Source of the DNA: an uncultured Rhizobiaceae bacterium
GTDB lineage: Bacteria > Pseudomonadota > Alphaproteobacteria > Rhizobiales > Rhizobiaceae
Reading direction: 5' to 3'
Length of the DNA: 64,000 nt
Assembly (NCBI GenBank): GCA_964242945.1
Contig: CAXTCF010000004.1
Location: 1,045 to 65,044, forward strand
Made by a program: the position numbers and the translations under genes. The notes under the pieces are model-generated. The model made no database searches. It was not told where the DNA came from and worked only from the letters and a program-made list of their open reading frames with translations. This document shows positions 28,019 to 42,442 of the stretch, piece after piece; positions within the stretch are counted from its first letter, which is position 1, and every line of letters starts with the position of its first letter.

Positions 28019-29416
28019 ATGGCTGAACAGGACTTTGTCGTCGCCGACATCAAGCTGGCCGATTGGGGCCGCAAGGAAATCGACATCGCCGAAACCGAGA
28101 TGCCGGGCCTGATGGCCTGCCGCGAGGAATTCGGCGACACGCAGCCGCTGAAGGGCGCCCGCATTTCCGGCTCGCTGCACATGACCATCCAGACGGCGGT
28201 GCTGATCGAGACGCTGAAGGCTCTAGGCGCCGACGTGCGCTGGGCCTCCTGCAACATCTTCTCCACCCAGGACCATGCTGCATCGGCGATCGCCGCTTCC
28301 GGCACGCCGGTCTTTGCCGTGAAGGGCGAGAGCCTGGAGGACTATTGGGTCTACACGGACAAGATCTTCCAGTGGACGGACGGTGCGCCCACCAACATGA
28401 TCCTGGACGACGGCGGCGACGCCACGATGTACATCCTGATCGGCGCCCGCGCCGAAGCCGGCGAGGACGTGCTGTCCAACCCTGGCTCCGAGGAAGAGGA
28501 AATCCTCTTCGCGCAGATAAGCAAGCGCATGGAACAGACCCCCGGCTTCTTCACCAGGAACCGCGACGCCATCCGCGGCGTGACGGAAGAAACCACCACC
28601 GGCGTCAACCGCCTCTATCAGCTGCAGAAGAAGGGCCTGCTGCCCTTCCCCGCGATCAACGTCAACGACAGCGTCACCAAGTCGAAGTTCGACAACAAGT
28701 ACGGCTGCAAGGAATCGCTGGTGGACGGCATCCGCCGCGGCACCGACGTGATGATGGCCGGCAAGGTCGCCGTGGTGTGCGGCTACGGCGACGTGGGCAA
28801 GGGCTCGGCGGCCTCTCTCAGGGGTGCGGGAGCACGCGTGAAGGTCACCGAGATCGACCCGATCTGCGCGCTCCAGGCCGCGATGGACGGCTATGAGGTC
28901 GTGACGCTGGAAGACGCGGCGCCTTCCGCCGACATCGTGATCACCACCACCGGCAACAAGGACGTGATCACCCTCGACCACATGCGCCGCTTCAAGGACA
29001 TGGCCATCGTCGGCAATATCGGCCACTTCGACAACGAGATCCAGGTAGCCAGCCTGCGCAACCTGAAGTGGACCAACATCAAGCCGCAGGTGGACATGAT
29101 CGAGTTCCCCGGCGGCAACCGCATGATCCTGCTCTCGGAAGGCCGCCTGCTCAACCTCGGCAACGCCACGGGCCACCCGTCCTTCGTGATGTCGGCTTCC
29201 TTCACCAACCAGGTGCTGGCGCAGATCGAGCTTTGGACCAAGCCCGGCCAGTACGAGAACAAGGTCTATGTGCTGCCCAAGCACCTGGACGAGCGCGTGG
29301 CGCGCCTTCACCTGGACAAGCTCGGCGTCAAGCTGACCGAGCTTTCCGGCGAGCAGGCCGCCTATATCGGCGTCGGCCAGCAGGGCCCGTTCAAGCCGGA
29401 GCACTACCGCTACTGA
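28019..29416 (+). CDS. ahcY: Adenosylhomocysteinase
   Basis: [48 protein letters not shown]; start at ATG 28019. Confidence 0.98.
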
Positions 29417-29462
29417 GGGGTGCGGCGCCTCTGGTTCTTAAACCAGAGCAGCTTCGATGAGG

Positions 29463-29490
29463 AGGCCGGGCAACACAGCCCGGCCTTTTT
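29463..29490 (+). terminator. Rho-independent terminator after ahcY
   Basis: AGGCCGGGC-AACACA-GCCCGGCCT followed by TTTT. Confidence 0.8.
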
Positions 29491-29643
29491 CATGCACACG
29501 ATTCTTGGGTCTTGTTCCCGCATGACCTGCTTGGCTATCCTGCCCGTCTGGTTCGTGATGCGCCCGTCTTCGGCGGAGGCGGTGTGGGGTGTTCGACGCA
29601 TCGGGTGCCGGATCAGGCAGTGCGGCAATGAGGGAATTCTGGG

Positions 29644-32397
29644 ATGCCGGGGGAACACCCGTCGGGCGCTGGGCAGCTTGTGCTCAGCGGACGCTTGGAC
29701 TTTGTAAGAGACCATTTCATAACTCGGAGGTGGAGGACCGACGAGGGATTTTTGGACCTTCGCAAGGCGCCGAGCGCAGTCGATGCCGGCAGCATCGGCG
29801 AGCATCGGCAACGCAGCGAGGGCCGAAAAGAGCCGTTGGGCCGACCCGGCCGAGTTATGAAATGGGCTCTAAGTTTTCAGGGAAAGCTGGGGGACGGTCT
29901 GCACACGGTGCGGCGGGGCGCGCGGGGCCGGCTGGCGCGGTTCGCTAGCGTTCTCGGCGGCGTTACGATGCTGACGCCGGTCGCAAGCGCGCAGGAGCCT
30001 GGGGGCGCCAGCATCGTCGGGCTCCGCGCACCGGAGATGATCCAGATCGCCATCTTCGCCGGCGCCATGGGGGCGGCGCTTATCTTCGCGCTGTGGATGA
30101 TCCGCGAGCGCGGCCAGATCGCGCGGGAAAACGCCGACCTGCGCGACCGCGTGGCCGACCTGAACGCTGCGCTGTCGCGCAGCGACGCCCTGCTCAACCT
30201 GCGCGACCAGCGCGTGATCGTCTGGAGCAGCGGCAACCAGAAGCCTGAACTGGTGGGTTCGCTCCCGGTGGAAAGCGGCGCGCCGGAGGACCGTGCGGCC
30301 TTCCTGGCGCCCGGCCGCTGGCTCAAGCCCCGCTCCGCGGCGCTCCTCGACAATGCCGTGGCGGCACTGCGCGAGGACGCGCAGAGTTTCGACCTCATCG
30401 CGGAAAGCCAGAACAACACGCTGTTCGAGGTGCAGGGCCGCCGCAACGCCGCGCACGCGCTGGTCCGCTTTACGGCACTCGGCGAGGTGCAGCGGAACGA
30501 GGCGCGGCTGCGTTTGGAAAACGGTCGCATCCTTTCGGACCTGAACTGCGTGCTCGACATGCTCAACGCGCTCGACATGCCGGCCTGGCTGCGCGACGAA
30601 AACGGGGGTCTGCGCTGGGTCAACAAGGCTTTTGCGCGCGCGGTTGAGGCGCCGAGCCCCCAGGTGACGGTGGAAGGGGGCAGGGAGTTCCTGAGCACCG
30701 CCACGCGCGAGGCGATCGCCCGCGAGCACGCGGGCCGGCCGGTTTTCGCGCAGAAGGTCTCCACCGTGGTGGAAGGCGACCGCCGCCAGTTCACCGTCAC
30801 CGACGTGGTCGGGTCGCGCGGCTCGGCCGGCATCGCCGCCGACGAAAGCGCCACCGAAGCCATCCGCGAGCAGTACGAGAAGGCGGTACGCTCCCACGCC
30901 GATACGCTCGACCAGCTGGCCACTGCCGTCGCGATCTTCGACAAGGACACCAAGCTTCGCTTCTTCAACCAGGCTTTCGTCAAGCTCTGGGACCTCGACC
31001 TTCCCTTCCTGCACAGCGCGCCCGACAACGCCCTCCTGCTCGACCGGCTGCGCGCGCAAGGCAAGATCGCGGAACAGCCGGAATGGCGGCGCTGGAAGGA
31101 GAACCTGCTGGAAGCCTACCGCGCGGTGGAAAGCCAGGAACAATGGTGGCACCTGCCGGACGGGCGCACGCTGCGGGTGATCGCCAACCCGCAGCCGGCA
31201 GGCGGCGTCACCTGGGTGTTCGAGAACGTCACGGAGCAGATGGACCTGGAAAGCCGCTACCAGACGGCGGTGCGCGTGCAGACGGAAACGCTGGACGGCC
31301 TCAACGAAGGCGTCGCCGTGTTCGGCCCGGACGGGCGCGCAAAGCTGTTCAACCCGGCCTTCGGCGCGATGTGGAGCTTAAGCCCCGGCGCGCTTGCGGC
31401 GGGCACCCACATCGCCACCCTGAAGAGCCACAGCGACCGCCTCGTGGCAGGCGGCGCGGAGAAGAGCCCCTGGGCCGGCTTTGTCGCCTCCGTGACCGGC
31501 TTCGACGAGGCCCGGCGCGACCGCAGCGGTGAATGCGAACTCTCCAACGGCACGATCCTGCGCTACGCCGTGATCCATCTGCCCAACGGGCAGGTGATGA
31601 TGACCTTCGTGGACGTCACCGACACCGTGCGGGTGAAGCGGGCGCTGACCGAAAAGAACGAGGCGCTGGAGCGCGCCGACCGGCTCAAGAACGACTTCGT
31701 GCAGCACGTCTCCTATGAACTGCGCTCGCCGCTGACCAACATCATCGGCTTCACCGAGTTGCTGACCCTGCCGGGCGCGGAACCGCTTGGCCCCCAGCAG
31801 CGCGAATATGTCGGGCATATCGGCTCGTCGTCGGCCGTGCTGCTCACCATCATCAACGACATCCTCGACCTCGCCACGATCGACGCGGGCATCATGGAGC
31901 TGGATATCGCGCCCGTCTCGGTGGACGCCACGATCGGGGCCGCGGCCGAGCTTCTGACTGAGCGCCTGGCCGAGAACGGCATCACGCTGAAGGTGGACGC
32001 AGAGGCCGCGCCGCAAAGTTTCGCGGGCGACGAGACGCGGGTGCGCCAGATCCTCTACAACCTTTTGTCCAACGCCGTGAACTACGCGCCGGAAGCCTCG
32101 ACCGTGACGCTTTCCTGCCGCGCCCTGCCGCACGGCGTGGAGTTCGCCGTCCACGACGACGGGCCGGGCATGGCGCCCGATGTGCTGGACACGGTGTTCC
32201 GCCGCTTCGAGCCGCGCTCCAACGGCGGGCGCCGCCGCGGGGCGGGCTTAGGCCTTTCCGTGGTGAAGAGTTTCGTCGAACTGCACGGCGGCACCGTGCG
32301 CATCGAGACCGGCGAGGCCAAGGGCACCACGGTGACCTGTTTTTTCCCTGGGCCGGCCACGCCCTGGCCGGCCAGTTCGCGCGACTTCGCGGGATGA
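29644..32397 (+). CDS. PAS-domain sensor histidine kinase (DivL/BdfA-like), apparently carrying a 55-aa MITE-derived insertion
   Basis: PAS-like repeats, HVSYELRSPLTNIIG, GAGLGLS; conserved position before tsaE. GAGGG lies 9 nt before ATG 29644. The true start may be further downstream. Confidence 0.85.
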   Translation: MPGEHPSGAGQLVLSGRLDFVRDHFITRRWRTDEGFLDLRKAPSAVDAGSIGEHRQRSEGRKEPLGRPGRVMKWALSFQGKLGDGLHTVRRGARGRLARFASVLGGVTMLTPVASAQEPGGASIVGLRAPEMIQIAIFAGAMGAALIFALWMIRERGQIARENADLRDRVADLNAALSRSDALLNLRDQRVIVWSSGNQKPELVGSLPVESGAPEDRAAFLAPGRWLKPRSAALLDNAVAALREDAQSFDLIAESQNNTLFEVQGRRNAAHALVRFTALGEVQRNEARLRLENGRILSDLNCVLDMLNALDMPAWLRDENGGLRWVNKAFARAVEAPSPQVTVEGGREFLSTATREAIAREHAGRPVFAQKVSTVVEGDRRQFTVTDVVGSRGSAGIAADESATEAIREQYEKAVRSHADTLDQLATAVAIFDKDTKLRFFNQAFVKLWDLDLPFLHSAPDNALLLDRLRAQGKIAEQPEWRRWKENLLEAYRAVESQEQWWHLPDGRTLRVIANPQPAGGVTWVFENVTEQMDLESRYQTAVRVQTETLDGLNEGVAVFGPDGRAKLFNPAFGAMWSLSPGALAAGTHIATLKSHSDRLVAGGAEKSPWAGFVASVTGFDEARRDRSGECELSNGTILRYAVIHLPNGQVMMTFVDVTDTVRVKRALTEKNEALERADRLKNDFVQHVSYELRSPLTNIIGFTELLTLPGAEPLGPQQREYVGHIGSSSAVLLTIINDILDLATIDAGIMELDIAPVSVDATIGAAAELLTERLAENGITLKVDAEAAPQSFAGDETRVRQILYNLLSNAVNYAPEASTVTLSCRALPHGVEFAVHDDGPGMAPDVLDTVFRRFEPRSNGGRRRGAGLGLSVVKSFVELHGGTVRIETGEAKGTTVTCFFPGPATPWPASSRDFAG
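29708..29869. mobile_element. 162-bp MITE with 20-bp terminal inverted repeats and TAA target-site duplication
   Basis: GAGACCATTTCATAACTCGG (29708-29727) and CCGAGTTATGAAATGGGCTC (29850-29869) match 19/20; TAA at 29705-29707 and 29870-29872. Confidence 0.88.
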
Positions 32398-33926
32398 GTG
32401 CTGCCGGCGCTGCATTGCAGGCGGATGCGCTGAGCGTTGTCCTGCCGGACGAGGCGGCGACGCGGCAACTCGGCGAAGACCTTGCCGCCGTGCTCCGGCC
32501 GGGCGATGTTCTGGCGCTCCAGGGCGATCTCGGCGCGGGGAAATCGACCTTGGCCCGCGCTTTGATCCGCGCGCTGGCGGACGACGCGGGCCTGGAAGTG
32601 CCGAGCCCGACTTTCACGCTCGTCCAGACTTACGACACATCCCCGGCGGTCTCCCACTTCGACCTCTACCGCTTGGGCGGCGCGGACGAATTGGAGGAAC
32701 TCGGCTTTGCAGACGCGGCCGCGAGCGGAGCAGTCCTGGTGGAATGGCCGGAAAAGGCTGGAGACAGGCTGCCGCCAAACGCGCTGACGCTCTTTCTCCA
32801 AACCGAAGGCGAGGGGCGGGCCGTCCGAATCGCGGGCGAAGGCAGCATTTTCGATCGGATACGCCGCTCGATTGCCGCCCGAAACTTTCTGCGCAACGCC
32901 GGCTGGGGCGAGGCCGCCCGCCGCAAGCTGACGGGCGACGCTTCGGCGCGCGCCTACGAGACCGTATCGCTGGCCGGCGAGGCTCCGCGCCTGCTGATGA
33001 ACGCCCCGCCGCTGGTGCTCGGTCCGGTCGTCAAGAACGGCAAGGCCTATGCCGAGATCGCCCGCTCCGCCCGCTCCGTTCACGCCATCGTCGCGGTGGA
33101 CGAGGCGCTTGCCGCAGCGGGCTTCGCGGTGCCGGAAATCTTCTCCGCCGATGTCGAGAACGGCTTCCTGCTGGTCGAGGATCTCGGCCGCGAAGGCATC
33201 CTCGACGCCGCGGGCAAGCCGGTTGCGGAACGCTACACGGCCTCGGCGGAACTGCTGGCCGCGCTGCACCAGCATGCCTGGACGCCTGAGATCGGCACGA
33301 GGCAAGGCTTCAACCACACGATTCCGCCCTTCGACCGCGAAGCGCTGCTGATCGAGGTGGAACTGCTGCTCGAATGGTTTTTTCCCTTCGCCAATGGCGG
33401 AGCCAGACCGGACGCCGCCCTGCAAGCCGAGTTCGCGGCGCTCTGGAGCGGCCTGATCGACAGGCTGGAAAGAGCCGGGCAAAGCTTGGTGCTGCGCGAC
33501 TTCCACTCGCCCAACATCATCTGGCGGGAAGACCGGAAAGGCCTTGGCCGGCTTGGCCTGATCGACTTCCAGGACGCGCTGATCGGCCCTGCCGCCTATG
33601 ATGTGGCGTCCCTGGCGATGGATGCCCGTGTGACGATCCCGCCTGAATTGGAAGAGCGCATCGCCGCCGCCTACGAGGCTGCCCGTGCTGGGGAGGCAGG
33701 CTTCGAGGCTGAGAAATTCCGCGAGGCCTATGCGATCTGCGCCGCGCAGCGGAACTCCAAGATCCTTGGCATCTTCGTGCGGCTCAAGGAGCGCGACGGC
33801 AAGGACGGCTACATCCGCCACCTGCCCCGCATCCAGGACTATCTCTCCCGCGCCCTGGCGCACCCCGCCCTGGCAGACCTGCGCGCTTTCTACCGCAAGC
33901 ACGGCTTTCTCGGAACACGGGCATGA
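32394..33926 (+). CDS. tsaE: TsaE fused to an APH-like (AmgK-type) phosphotransferase
   Basis: GDLGAGKST, VPSPTFTLVQ, HFDLYRL; then GDASARAY, RDFHSPN, IDFQDAL. Confidence 0.93.
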   Translation: MSAAGAALQADALSVVLPDEAATRQLGEDLAAVLRPGDVLALQGDLGAGKSTLARALIRALADDAGLEVPSPTFTLVQTYDTSPAVSHFDLYRLGGADELEELGFADAAASGAVLVEWPEKAGDRLPPNALTLFLQTEGEGRAVRIAGEGSIFDRIRRSIAARNFLRNAGWGEAARRKLTGDASARAYETVSLAGEAPRLLMNAPPLVLGPVVKNGKAYAEIARSARSVHAIVAVDEALAAAGFAVPEIFSADVENGFLLVEDLGREGILDAAGKPVAERYTASAELLAALHQHAWTPEIGTRQGFNHTIPPFDREALLIEVELLLEWFFPFANGGARPDAALQAEFAALWSGLIDRLERAGQSLVLRDFHSPNIIWREDRKGLGRLGLIDFQDALIGPAAYDVASLAMDARVTIPPELEERIAAAYEAARAGEAGFEAEKFREAYAICAAQRNSKILGIFVRLKERDGKDGYIRHLPRIQDYLSRALAHPALADLRAFYRKHGFLGTRA

Positions 33927-42299: not shown

Positions 42300-42442
42300 G
42301 AGGTTGTTTGGAAAGGCGTCAGGGCGCAGCGAGAATGGTGTTTTCGAGAACCGGAGCGCAGCGTACCTTGATGGTACGTGAGCACCGGAAGCGGAGAAAA
42401 CGCCGTTCGCAGCCAGCCCTCACGCAGTTTCCAGACAACCTC
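42300..42442. mobile_element. RPE-like (Rickettsia palindromic element-like) MITE, 143 bp
   Basis: TIRs GAGGTTGTTTGGAAA and TTTCCAGACAACCTC match 14/15; central GCAGCGTAC...GTACGTGAG core as recalled for RPE1. Confidence 0.8.

Follow-up and report, generated by a model that had tools for sequence, protein, structure and literature searches.

The window analysed here is a stretch of 64,000 nucleotides from contig CAXTCF010000004.1 of an uncultured Rhizobiaceae bacterium, and it carries a sensor histidine kinase gene (29644..32397, plus strand) that was delimited from its open reading frame (ORF), its domain matches and its orthologues. The product contains three to four PAS domains followed by HisKA and HATPase_c, has 917 residues, and is encoded in a frame without frameshifts or stops throughout the gene. 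Its conserved ATG stands behind a Shine-Dalgarno (SD) sequence, GAGGGA (29630..29646 on the plus strand, taken from direct reading and from orthologue starts), which gives the N-terminus MPGEHPSGAGQ from ATG 29644 and bears out the GAGGG ribosome-binding site that an earlier sequence-only reading had claimed before this codon. Twenty-one codons into the gene lies a 162-bp miniature transposable element with inverted repeats (a MITE), which the comparisons below place inside the coding sequence and which is probably translated as part of the kinase.

The MITE occupies 29708..29869 on the plus strand and was identified by direct reading, BLAST, nhmmer and RNA folding as a long hairpin of the subfamily that we call A. 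Direct reading gives a target-site duplication, TAA, with its left copy at 29705..29707 and its right copy at 29870..29872, and terminal inverted repeats (TIRs) at 29708..29727 (GAGACCATTTCATAACTCGG, with a TAA at element position 13) and at 29850..29869 (CCGAGTTATGAAATGGGCTC, with a TGA at element position 151 and an in-frame ATG at 29857), all on the plus strand. The TIRs pair at 19/20 positions over the terminal 20 nt and the inverted repeat reaches 37 nt at 78%. RNA folding of the MITE gives one long hairpin with an energy of -95.1 kcal/mol, for which z is -9.8 relative to 200 dinucleotide shuffles, and given this z-score and about 30 loci in the same genome it is far beyond chance; by its sequence features the 162-bp element is a true MITE.

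The kinase ORF crosses the MITE free of stops, reading RDHFITRRWRTDEGFLDLRKAPSAVDAGSIGEHRQRSEGRKEPLGRPGRVMKWAL, and the in silico removal of 29708-29872 leaves a continuous ...LDFVSFQGKL.... The 55 inserted codons (29707..29871, plus strand) correspond to residues 22-76 of the 917-residue product, as placed by a 55-residue gap against an insert-free relative and by DNA alignment. The sequence-only reading had described precisely this arrangement, namely an element at 29705-29872 with 162 bp, 19/20 TIRs and a TAA on both sides, an addition of 165 nt or 55 stop-free codons in the kinase frame, a seamless frame after its removal and an in-frame ATG at 29857 in the right TIR, and each of these points proved exact. 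The tryptic peptides predicted for the insert and its junctions are LDFVR, DHFITR, TDEGFLDLR, APSAVDAGSIGEHR, EPLGRPGR and WALSFQGK.

The position of the start codon decides whether the MITE lies in the gene or ahead of it. The kinase adjoins ahcY in 31/31 related genomes, where similarity to the window protein starts only at residues 79-104, past the insert. An M-P-G(Q/E/G/V) start that follows directly on a purine-rich SD and shares the frame of the kinase body is found in same-genus and neighbouring-genus orthologues: MPGQPSGM... (two genomes), MPGQPSGRW... and MPGGFPRG... within the genus, MPGEDPCRR... and, from a TTG start, (M)PGVVSQK... in neighbouring genera, and MPGDKPD... in a further genus, with MPK, MPT, MPS and MPA in more distant family members. 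The MPG start is kept in loci L002-L007 and L017, spanning three genera; of 20 loci, 8 begin with MPG and a further 5 with MP-x, and an MP start was not seen in L008-L011 or in the three more distant loci L018-L020. Of the MPGE start that the sequence-only reading had suggested for rhizobial orthologues, MPG is conserved and the fourth residue varies, being E in one neighbouring genus (MPGEDPCRR). With regard to orthologues that might begin downstream of 29872, a case raised by the same reading, what we found instead were these SD-preceded, in-frame MPG starts.

A search with the first 150 kinase residues returned one protein, P0001, from two metagenome contigs (L021/L022), which preserves the empty site that an orthologue alignment had been expected to reveal. 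P0001 has 862 residues, that is, 917 minus 55, with the N-terminus MPGQHPSGAGQFVLSGRLDF, and 777 of its 862 alignable positions are identical to the window protein (85% amino acid identity counting the gap; synonymous divergence, dS, 0.27). The gap positions, 55 in all, lie between residue 21 and a conserved HT-RRG motif; the aligner breaks the gap into pieces, and its exact placement at residues 22-76 was taken from the DNA alignment, not from the protein alignment. At the nucleotide level the window minus 29708-29872 aligns gaplessly to L021/L022 with 84% identity, and an independent gene call on these contigs chose the same start codon.

These data bear on two alternatives. The true kinase start could lie downstream, near the first hydrophobic segment, leaving the MITE in a 5' untranslated leader where it adds no peptide; long open frames commonly precede true starts in high-GC DNA, and in a comparison of the window with L021 conservation is as high over the 45 nt preceding the ATG as over the first codons. 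We consider this very improbable, however, given that the SD-preceded MPG and MP-x starts are always in frame despite large intervening changes, that the independent gene call takes this start, and that the ratio of nonsynonymous to synonymous divergence (dN/dS) of codons 1-21 is 0.29, albeit in a small sample. Alternatively, the 165 bp could be ancestral and have been lost by deletion in the relative, of which only one close example with the short form was found. This explanation is effectively refuted, given the perfect TAA repeats and 19/20 TIRs at the borders of the segment, its membership of a dispersed family with about 30 copies, its absence from every orthologue examined in the genus and its peptide, which has no counterpart in bona fide proteins; ancestral sequence without other copies, as contemplated in the sequence-only reading, gave way to an empty site in a relative and many genomic copies. 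Judged from these alignments, the MITE is inserted within the kinase coding sequence and not upstream of its start.

The kinase is not interrupted because 162 bp plus the duplication make 165 nt, or 55 codons, and the stops in the TIRs fall in a non-reading phase. Only two stop triplets occur in the element on either strand, the TAA at position 13 and the TGA at position 151, one per TIR and both in the phase of the flanking duplication, and the core is stop-free in all six frames. The TGA corresponds to the transposase stop codon of the parent insertion sequence (IS) described below. When insertion was simulated in all phases, in both orientations and into several targets, the only phase that met a stop in a sense-strand TAA or TGA target was the one where the target itself is already a stop codon; this phase cannot be the reading phase, and a working gene hit at such a target therefore always gains 55 codons without a stop. 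With TTA or TCA as the target, one of three phases is closed. The same geometry is present in 5/6 canonical 162-bp copies. The stop-free read-through is hence a geometric consequence that needs no special selection, and it is not evidence of adaptation.

Selection on the family for open frames was considered and rejected. The 15 full copies hold 45 open frames, against 19.6 under mononucleotide shuffles and 23.4 +/- 4.2 under block shuffles, yet GC-matched 163-mers taken at random from the genome give 2.84/6, or about 43 per 15 copies; a selected stop-free core was likewise discarded, at P ~0.10 under dinucleotide shuffles. For the suggested bias of coding insertions towards stop-free frames and lengths divisible by three no evidence was found, with open frames equal to those of random genomic 163-mers and a single intragenic copy. 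It is doubtful that subfamily A was shaped by selection as a "translation-transparent" element (3n length, stop-free core, phase-locked TIR stops) that colonises coding regions of a free-living alphaproteobacterium as Rickettsia palindromic elements (RPEs) do. If it were, such a MITE would be a source of new protein segments that does not kill genes, as proposed for RPEs in Rickettsia.

The copy count by BLASTN that the sequence-only reading had called for, extended here with iterated nhmmer, yielded about 30 related loci in the same 4.25-Mb draft genome, the nearest being 93% identical to the kinase copy. Canonical copies are 162 bp long, and most full copies are flanked by TTA, TAA or TGA. 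The family is also present in 3/4 other genomes of the genus and in Aureimonas sp. AU20, whose replicons carry copies with 79-81% identity; the latter finding suggests Aureimonas, or something closely related to it, as the origin of the window. Three subfamilies have a common core of about 110 nt (…CGAGGGnTTTTnG…GCGCCGAGCGCAGnCGATGC…GCATCGGCGAGCATCGGCAACG…AAAAGAnCCG…GCCGACCC) and differ in their terminal 20-25 nt, which read GAGCCCGTTTCATAA in A, GAGCACATAACAAAACC in B and GAGAYGGGGACAATACC in C; all begin with GAG and are mostly flanked by T-N-A. Examples of subfamily B are C16:21138-21300, C202:2998-3156 and C85:8945-9106, and of subfamily C, C93:9975-10160 and C6:28965-29145. From this pattern one core seems to have been joined to the ends of different IS5-type elements, and the 110-nt core under three sets of IS termini could conceivably be a functional module that acts as RNA or binds protein.

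A further short element at 42300-42442 of the window shows the architecture GAGCGCAG-stem-loop-stem-GAGCACCGG and contains the motif GAGCGCAG...GAGCAYCGG. It gave no match to the profile of the kinase MITE family even at E = 10, and by BLAST the two share only 8-9-nt words.

The terminal 20-mer was searched outside the MITE copies in the contigs of the genome. Nine contig ends (the starts of C49, C81, C114, C137, C174 and C191 and the ends of C187, C206 and C265) stop 35-52 nt inside a longer IS that starts with GACCCCGTTTCATAA and is flanked by T-N-A. These ends comprise two internal types plus one variant, two types being what is expected for both ends of an IS collapsed during assembly. One end type encodes ...AAMVLVQRIARQL*, with its TGA stop inside the terminal repeat, and AAMVLVQRIARQL matches the C-terminus of an annotated IS5-family transposase on plasmid pLVM1 of Methylobacterium sp. 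DM1. The pLVM1 element is about 928 bp (~0.93 kb) long, has the same termini as the MITE, a TCA/TCA duplication and a single ORF of 272 codons, and its 272-residue transposase scores 217 bits on NCBIfam NF033580 (cutoff 110). A tblastn search for the transposase in the own genome found only a degenerate 84-residue fragment (C25:16305-16556).

In its length, single ORF and 3-bp T-N-A duplication the pLVM1 element resembles the IS1031 group of the IS5 family, and the choice of IS1031 over IS427 is based on these properties. The sequence evidence identifies the parent as a multi-copy IS5-family, IS1031-like IS and the MITE as a non-autonomous derivative presumably mobilised by it. What had been a guess, mobilisation by an IS5/IS1031 element, is supported by the T-N-A flanks and by termini identical to those of an IS encoding an NF033580 IS5-family transposase.

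At every copy, the spanning open frames were tested for the codon-position G+C signature that real genes of the genome show (about 0.70/0.47/0.89). The kinase frame alone has this signature downstream of the copy, with a third-position G+C of 0.89, and is compatible with it upstream. The other copies within long open frames were dismissed, being in shadow frames or ahead of a real gene that begins just past the MITE (a PFK-like gene on C156 and a threonine-aldolase-like gene on C16), and a copy suspected to be intragenic, L040, is intergenic. Three congeneric genomes contain another fifteen copies, none of which lies within a gene; two are located just upstream of a gene start. The intragenic count is therefore 1 of ~30 copies in the own genome and 0/15 in the congeners, or 1 of the ~45 copies examined in the four genomes, so that the family does not have an RPE-like coding-sequence lifestyle. 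The earlier suggestion of an element that parasitises coding sequence in the manner of RPEs accordingly stands for the kinase insertion and falls for the family, whose ~44 other copies in these genomes are intergenic. The 55-residue insert peptide, searched against 1.84 billion representatives, found only four weak, junk-like short ORFs over MITE cores, in a library of 50%-identity representatives behind which insert-bearing alleles can hide.

The Aureimonas sp. AU20 copies (pAU20a / pAU20c; L024 1501-1647 and L025 1501-1606) touch the ends of genes. The end of one coincides with the corA stop codon, which is consistent with T-N-A targeting of stop codons, and the last ~4 codons of a ROK-family regulator come from another.

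Substitution rates in the kinase gene were compared with the insert-free relative. The dN/dS is 0.23 for the whole gene, 0.84 for the 34 codons between the insertion site and the first hydrophobic segment and 0.20 for the rest of the gene, beside the value already given for codons 1-21. The MITE thus sits at the edge of a fast-evolving linker, whose length is also highly variable among orthologues. In a single-sequence AlphaFold2 model the predicted local distance difference test (pLDDT) score is 31-43 over residues 1-72, with moderate confidence only from the second membrane helix on, a weak but consistent indication that the N-terminal tail may be disordered.

Two hydrophobic segments follow the tail. 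The first (residues ~98-116, 29935..29991, plus strand), as judged from its sequence, reads ...VLGGVTMLTPVASA followed by QE and may be a first transmembrane segment or the hydrophobic region of a signal-peptide-like sequence with an AxA motif. The second, MIQIAIFAGAMGAALIFALWMI (30037..30102, plus strand), is a predicted transmembrane segment on the basis of its sequence and of a modelled helix at residues 129-194 with pLDDT 63-79. The first segment ends in ...PVASA before QE, and those of orthologues end in AGAQ, AQAQ, ALAQ or AHAQ; such an AxA-Q end looks like a signal-peptidase motif.

We propose that an IS5-family MITE transposed into a TAA spanning codons 21/22 of a membrane-anchored PAS kinase, duplicating the TAA. 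Translation from ATG 29644 would cross the MITE and yield a pre-protein of 917 residues instead of 862, in which the extra 55 residues would be part of a cytoplasmic tail that precedes the first hydrophobic segment, evolves fast and probably lacks structure; the insertion would be tolerated because of this location. If the first segment is a cleaved signal peptide, the insert would be removed from the mature kinase, which would explain its neutrality. We assign a probability of roughly 0.62 to an in-frame MITE insertion that is read through and tolerated in the kinase, where translation, protein function and topology or cleavage are inferred.

Several observations weigh against this proposal. 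The IS body is missing from the assembly, which lacks contigs shorter than 2.2 kb and for that reason would not contain it, and what the genome shows of the transposase is its final 13 codons and the 84-residue fragment on C25. The empty site of the relative reads CAG where the window has TAA, and the target triplet before insertion is for this reason deduced and not observed. The upstream coding part comprises only 21 codons and carries a statistically weak coding signature. The hairpin, of -95 kcal/mol and beginning 64 nt beyond the start codon, could hinder elongation or make the mRNA less stable, and the downstream in-frame starts ATG 29857 and GTG 29908 could give a shorter kinase with all recognised domains.

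In an alternative reading, the MITE lies inside the ancestral coding sequence, but the kinase is now made mainly from ATG 29857 (29857..29859, plus strand) or from GTG 29908 (V89, 29908..29910, plus strand), with 846 or 829 residues, and the 5' part has become a short leader ORF or is poorly translated on account of the hairpin. Both codons are in frame and precede the basic stretch and the first hydrophobic segment, the mRNA hairpin is very stable, and the N-terminal tail, variable in length and sequence among orthologues, may be dispensable (dN/dS 0.84). However, ATG 29857 is a poorly supported secondary start, with no convincing SD and buried in the hairpin stem, ribosomes from the SD-preceded conserved ATG 29644 meet no stop and would read through, and the hairpin begins beyond the initiation footprint, 64 nt past the ATG. 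We judge a shift to these starts unlikely, though worth keeping in mind.

It is also conceivable that the kinase has been impaired or silenced by the insertion, be it that less of it is translated, that its long N-terminal region is mis-targeted or that the mRNA is processed at the hairpin, and that the frame is open only since the event is recent. The event is later than the split from the relative at dS 0.27, a single intact frame of 2.75 kb is no proof of ongoing selection, and the stretch ahead of the hydrophobic segment grows to an unusual length of about 100 residues. On the other hand, the gene has neither frameshifts nor stops and is kept in 31/31 related genomes, and the overlap of its stop with a downstream gene suggests an operon that is still read. 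The MITE copy is also diverged, being 93% identical to the nearest other copy and having a single mismatch between its TIRs, which speaks weakly against a very recent event. Loss of the kinase in this way is, in our estimation, rather improbable, and an insertion that is read through and tolerated remains our preferred interpretation.

The neighbours of the kinase are ahcY, coding for S-adenosyl-L-homocysteine hydrolase (28019..29416, plus strand), which is kept upstream in relatives, and a TsaE + APH-type phosphotransferase fusion downstream (32394..33926, plus strand), the gene that overlaps the kinase stop. A GC-rich hairpin, GGCCGGGC-AACACA-GCCCGGCC followed by TTTTT, stands at 29464-29490 shortly after the ahcY stop and resembles a terminator of that gene; it was not called by the consensus scan, and Rfam small RNA hits there are sub-threshold. 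Rfam holds no family matching the MITE, the only two hits being these sub-threshold ones on the ahcY terminator hairpin, and a consensus scan of 29380-30000 for promoters and terminators found none, which leaves no support for a MITE that brings a promoter or acts as a canonical terminator.

Upstream of the kinase, a motif ATATTAACCTTGTnnnnnTGATTCT with a GANTC site is common to same-genus relatives, about 100-150 nt 5' of the kinase start (L002, minus strand, ~4190-4165; L003 ~1412-1436; L004 ~931-955), and may be a regulatory site of the kinase promoter; the window retains only CACACGATTCTTGGG of it, at 29497-29511. A 29-nt block, AGGCGGTGTGGGGTGTTCGACGCATCGGG, within the region 5' of the start (window 29560-29643 against L021 2917-3000) is 100% identical, though the genes differ by 16% at the nucleotide level, and it may be a leader or operator element.

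The kinase insertion is a clean case of a known bacterial phenomenon and not a new principle. It offers a natural example of textbook quality in which one can identify the site in both its filled and its empty state, the conserved start codon, the target duplication and the partner IS, and its host is a non-reduced, free-living-type alphaproteobacterium, not an obligate intracellular one. An element that targets T-N-A and has its stops locked to the target phase provides a simple mechanistic reason why insertions can be harmless, and the 55-residue segment, if translated, would provide a signalling protein with material for a new N-terminal region. The locus is also a warning for annotation, as gene callers may misplace the start of this kinase.

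In-frame MITE fusions are "not unusual" in bacteria, with RPEs as the extreme case, according to a 2024 review (PMC10969869). The summary of Ogata et al. (2000, 2002) in that review gives 44 RPE insertions in Rickettsia conorii, most of them in ORFs. Like an RPE, the kinase MITE is a palindrome of about 150 bp that lies in frame in a conserved alphaproteobacterial gene, has a frame-compatible length and places its peptide in a probably tolerant region. Unlike RPEs, which sit in many genes, its family is intragenic in 1 of ~45 cases, an autonomous IS5-family element matches it as a partner, its target duplication is of the classical 3-bp kind, and its host is of the free-living type with a 4.25-Mb genome. 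Its sequence showed no resemblance to RPEs, although no search aimed at one was made.

Compared with IS5-family (IS1031-group-like) elements and their MITE derivatives, the kinase MITE has the same GAG/GAC-initiated termini, the 3-bp T-N-A duplication, a parent of ~0.93 kb with a DDE transposase of about 272 residues (NF033580), and some 15-20 terminal nucleotides common to MITE and IS. It differs from a simple IS5 derivative in its 110-nt core, which does not come from the body of the Methylobacterium IS and is common to two other subfamilies with different termini.

Other bacterial MITEs also make in-frame extensions of host proteins: QMITE2 of Coxiella burnetii lengthens enhC by 33 residues (PMC5896051), and intragenic enterobacterial repetitive intergenic consensus (ERIC)/intergenic repeat unit (IRU) elements and Anabaena MITEs occasionally produce in-frame fusions or extensions (PMC2229807, PMC10969869). 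The kinase MITE is like these in lengthening a host protein in frame. It is unlike them in that its host gene encodes a universally conserved, housekeeping-type signalling kinase and not a hypothetical protein, in that the insertion is N-terminal and internal instead of a 3' extension, and in that it is documented by a precise empty site in a close relative.

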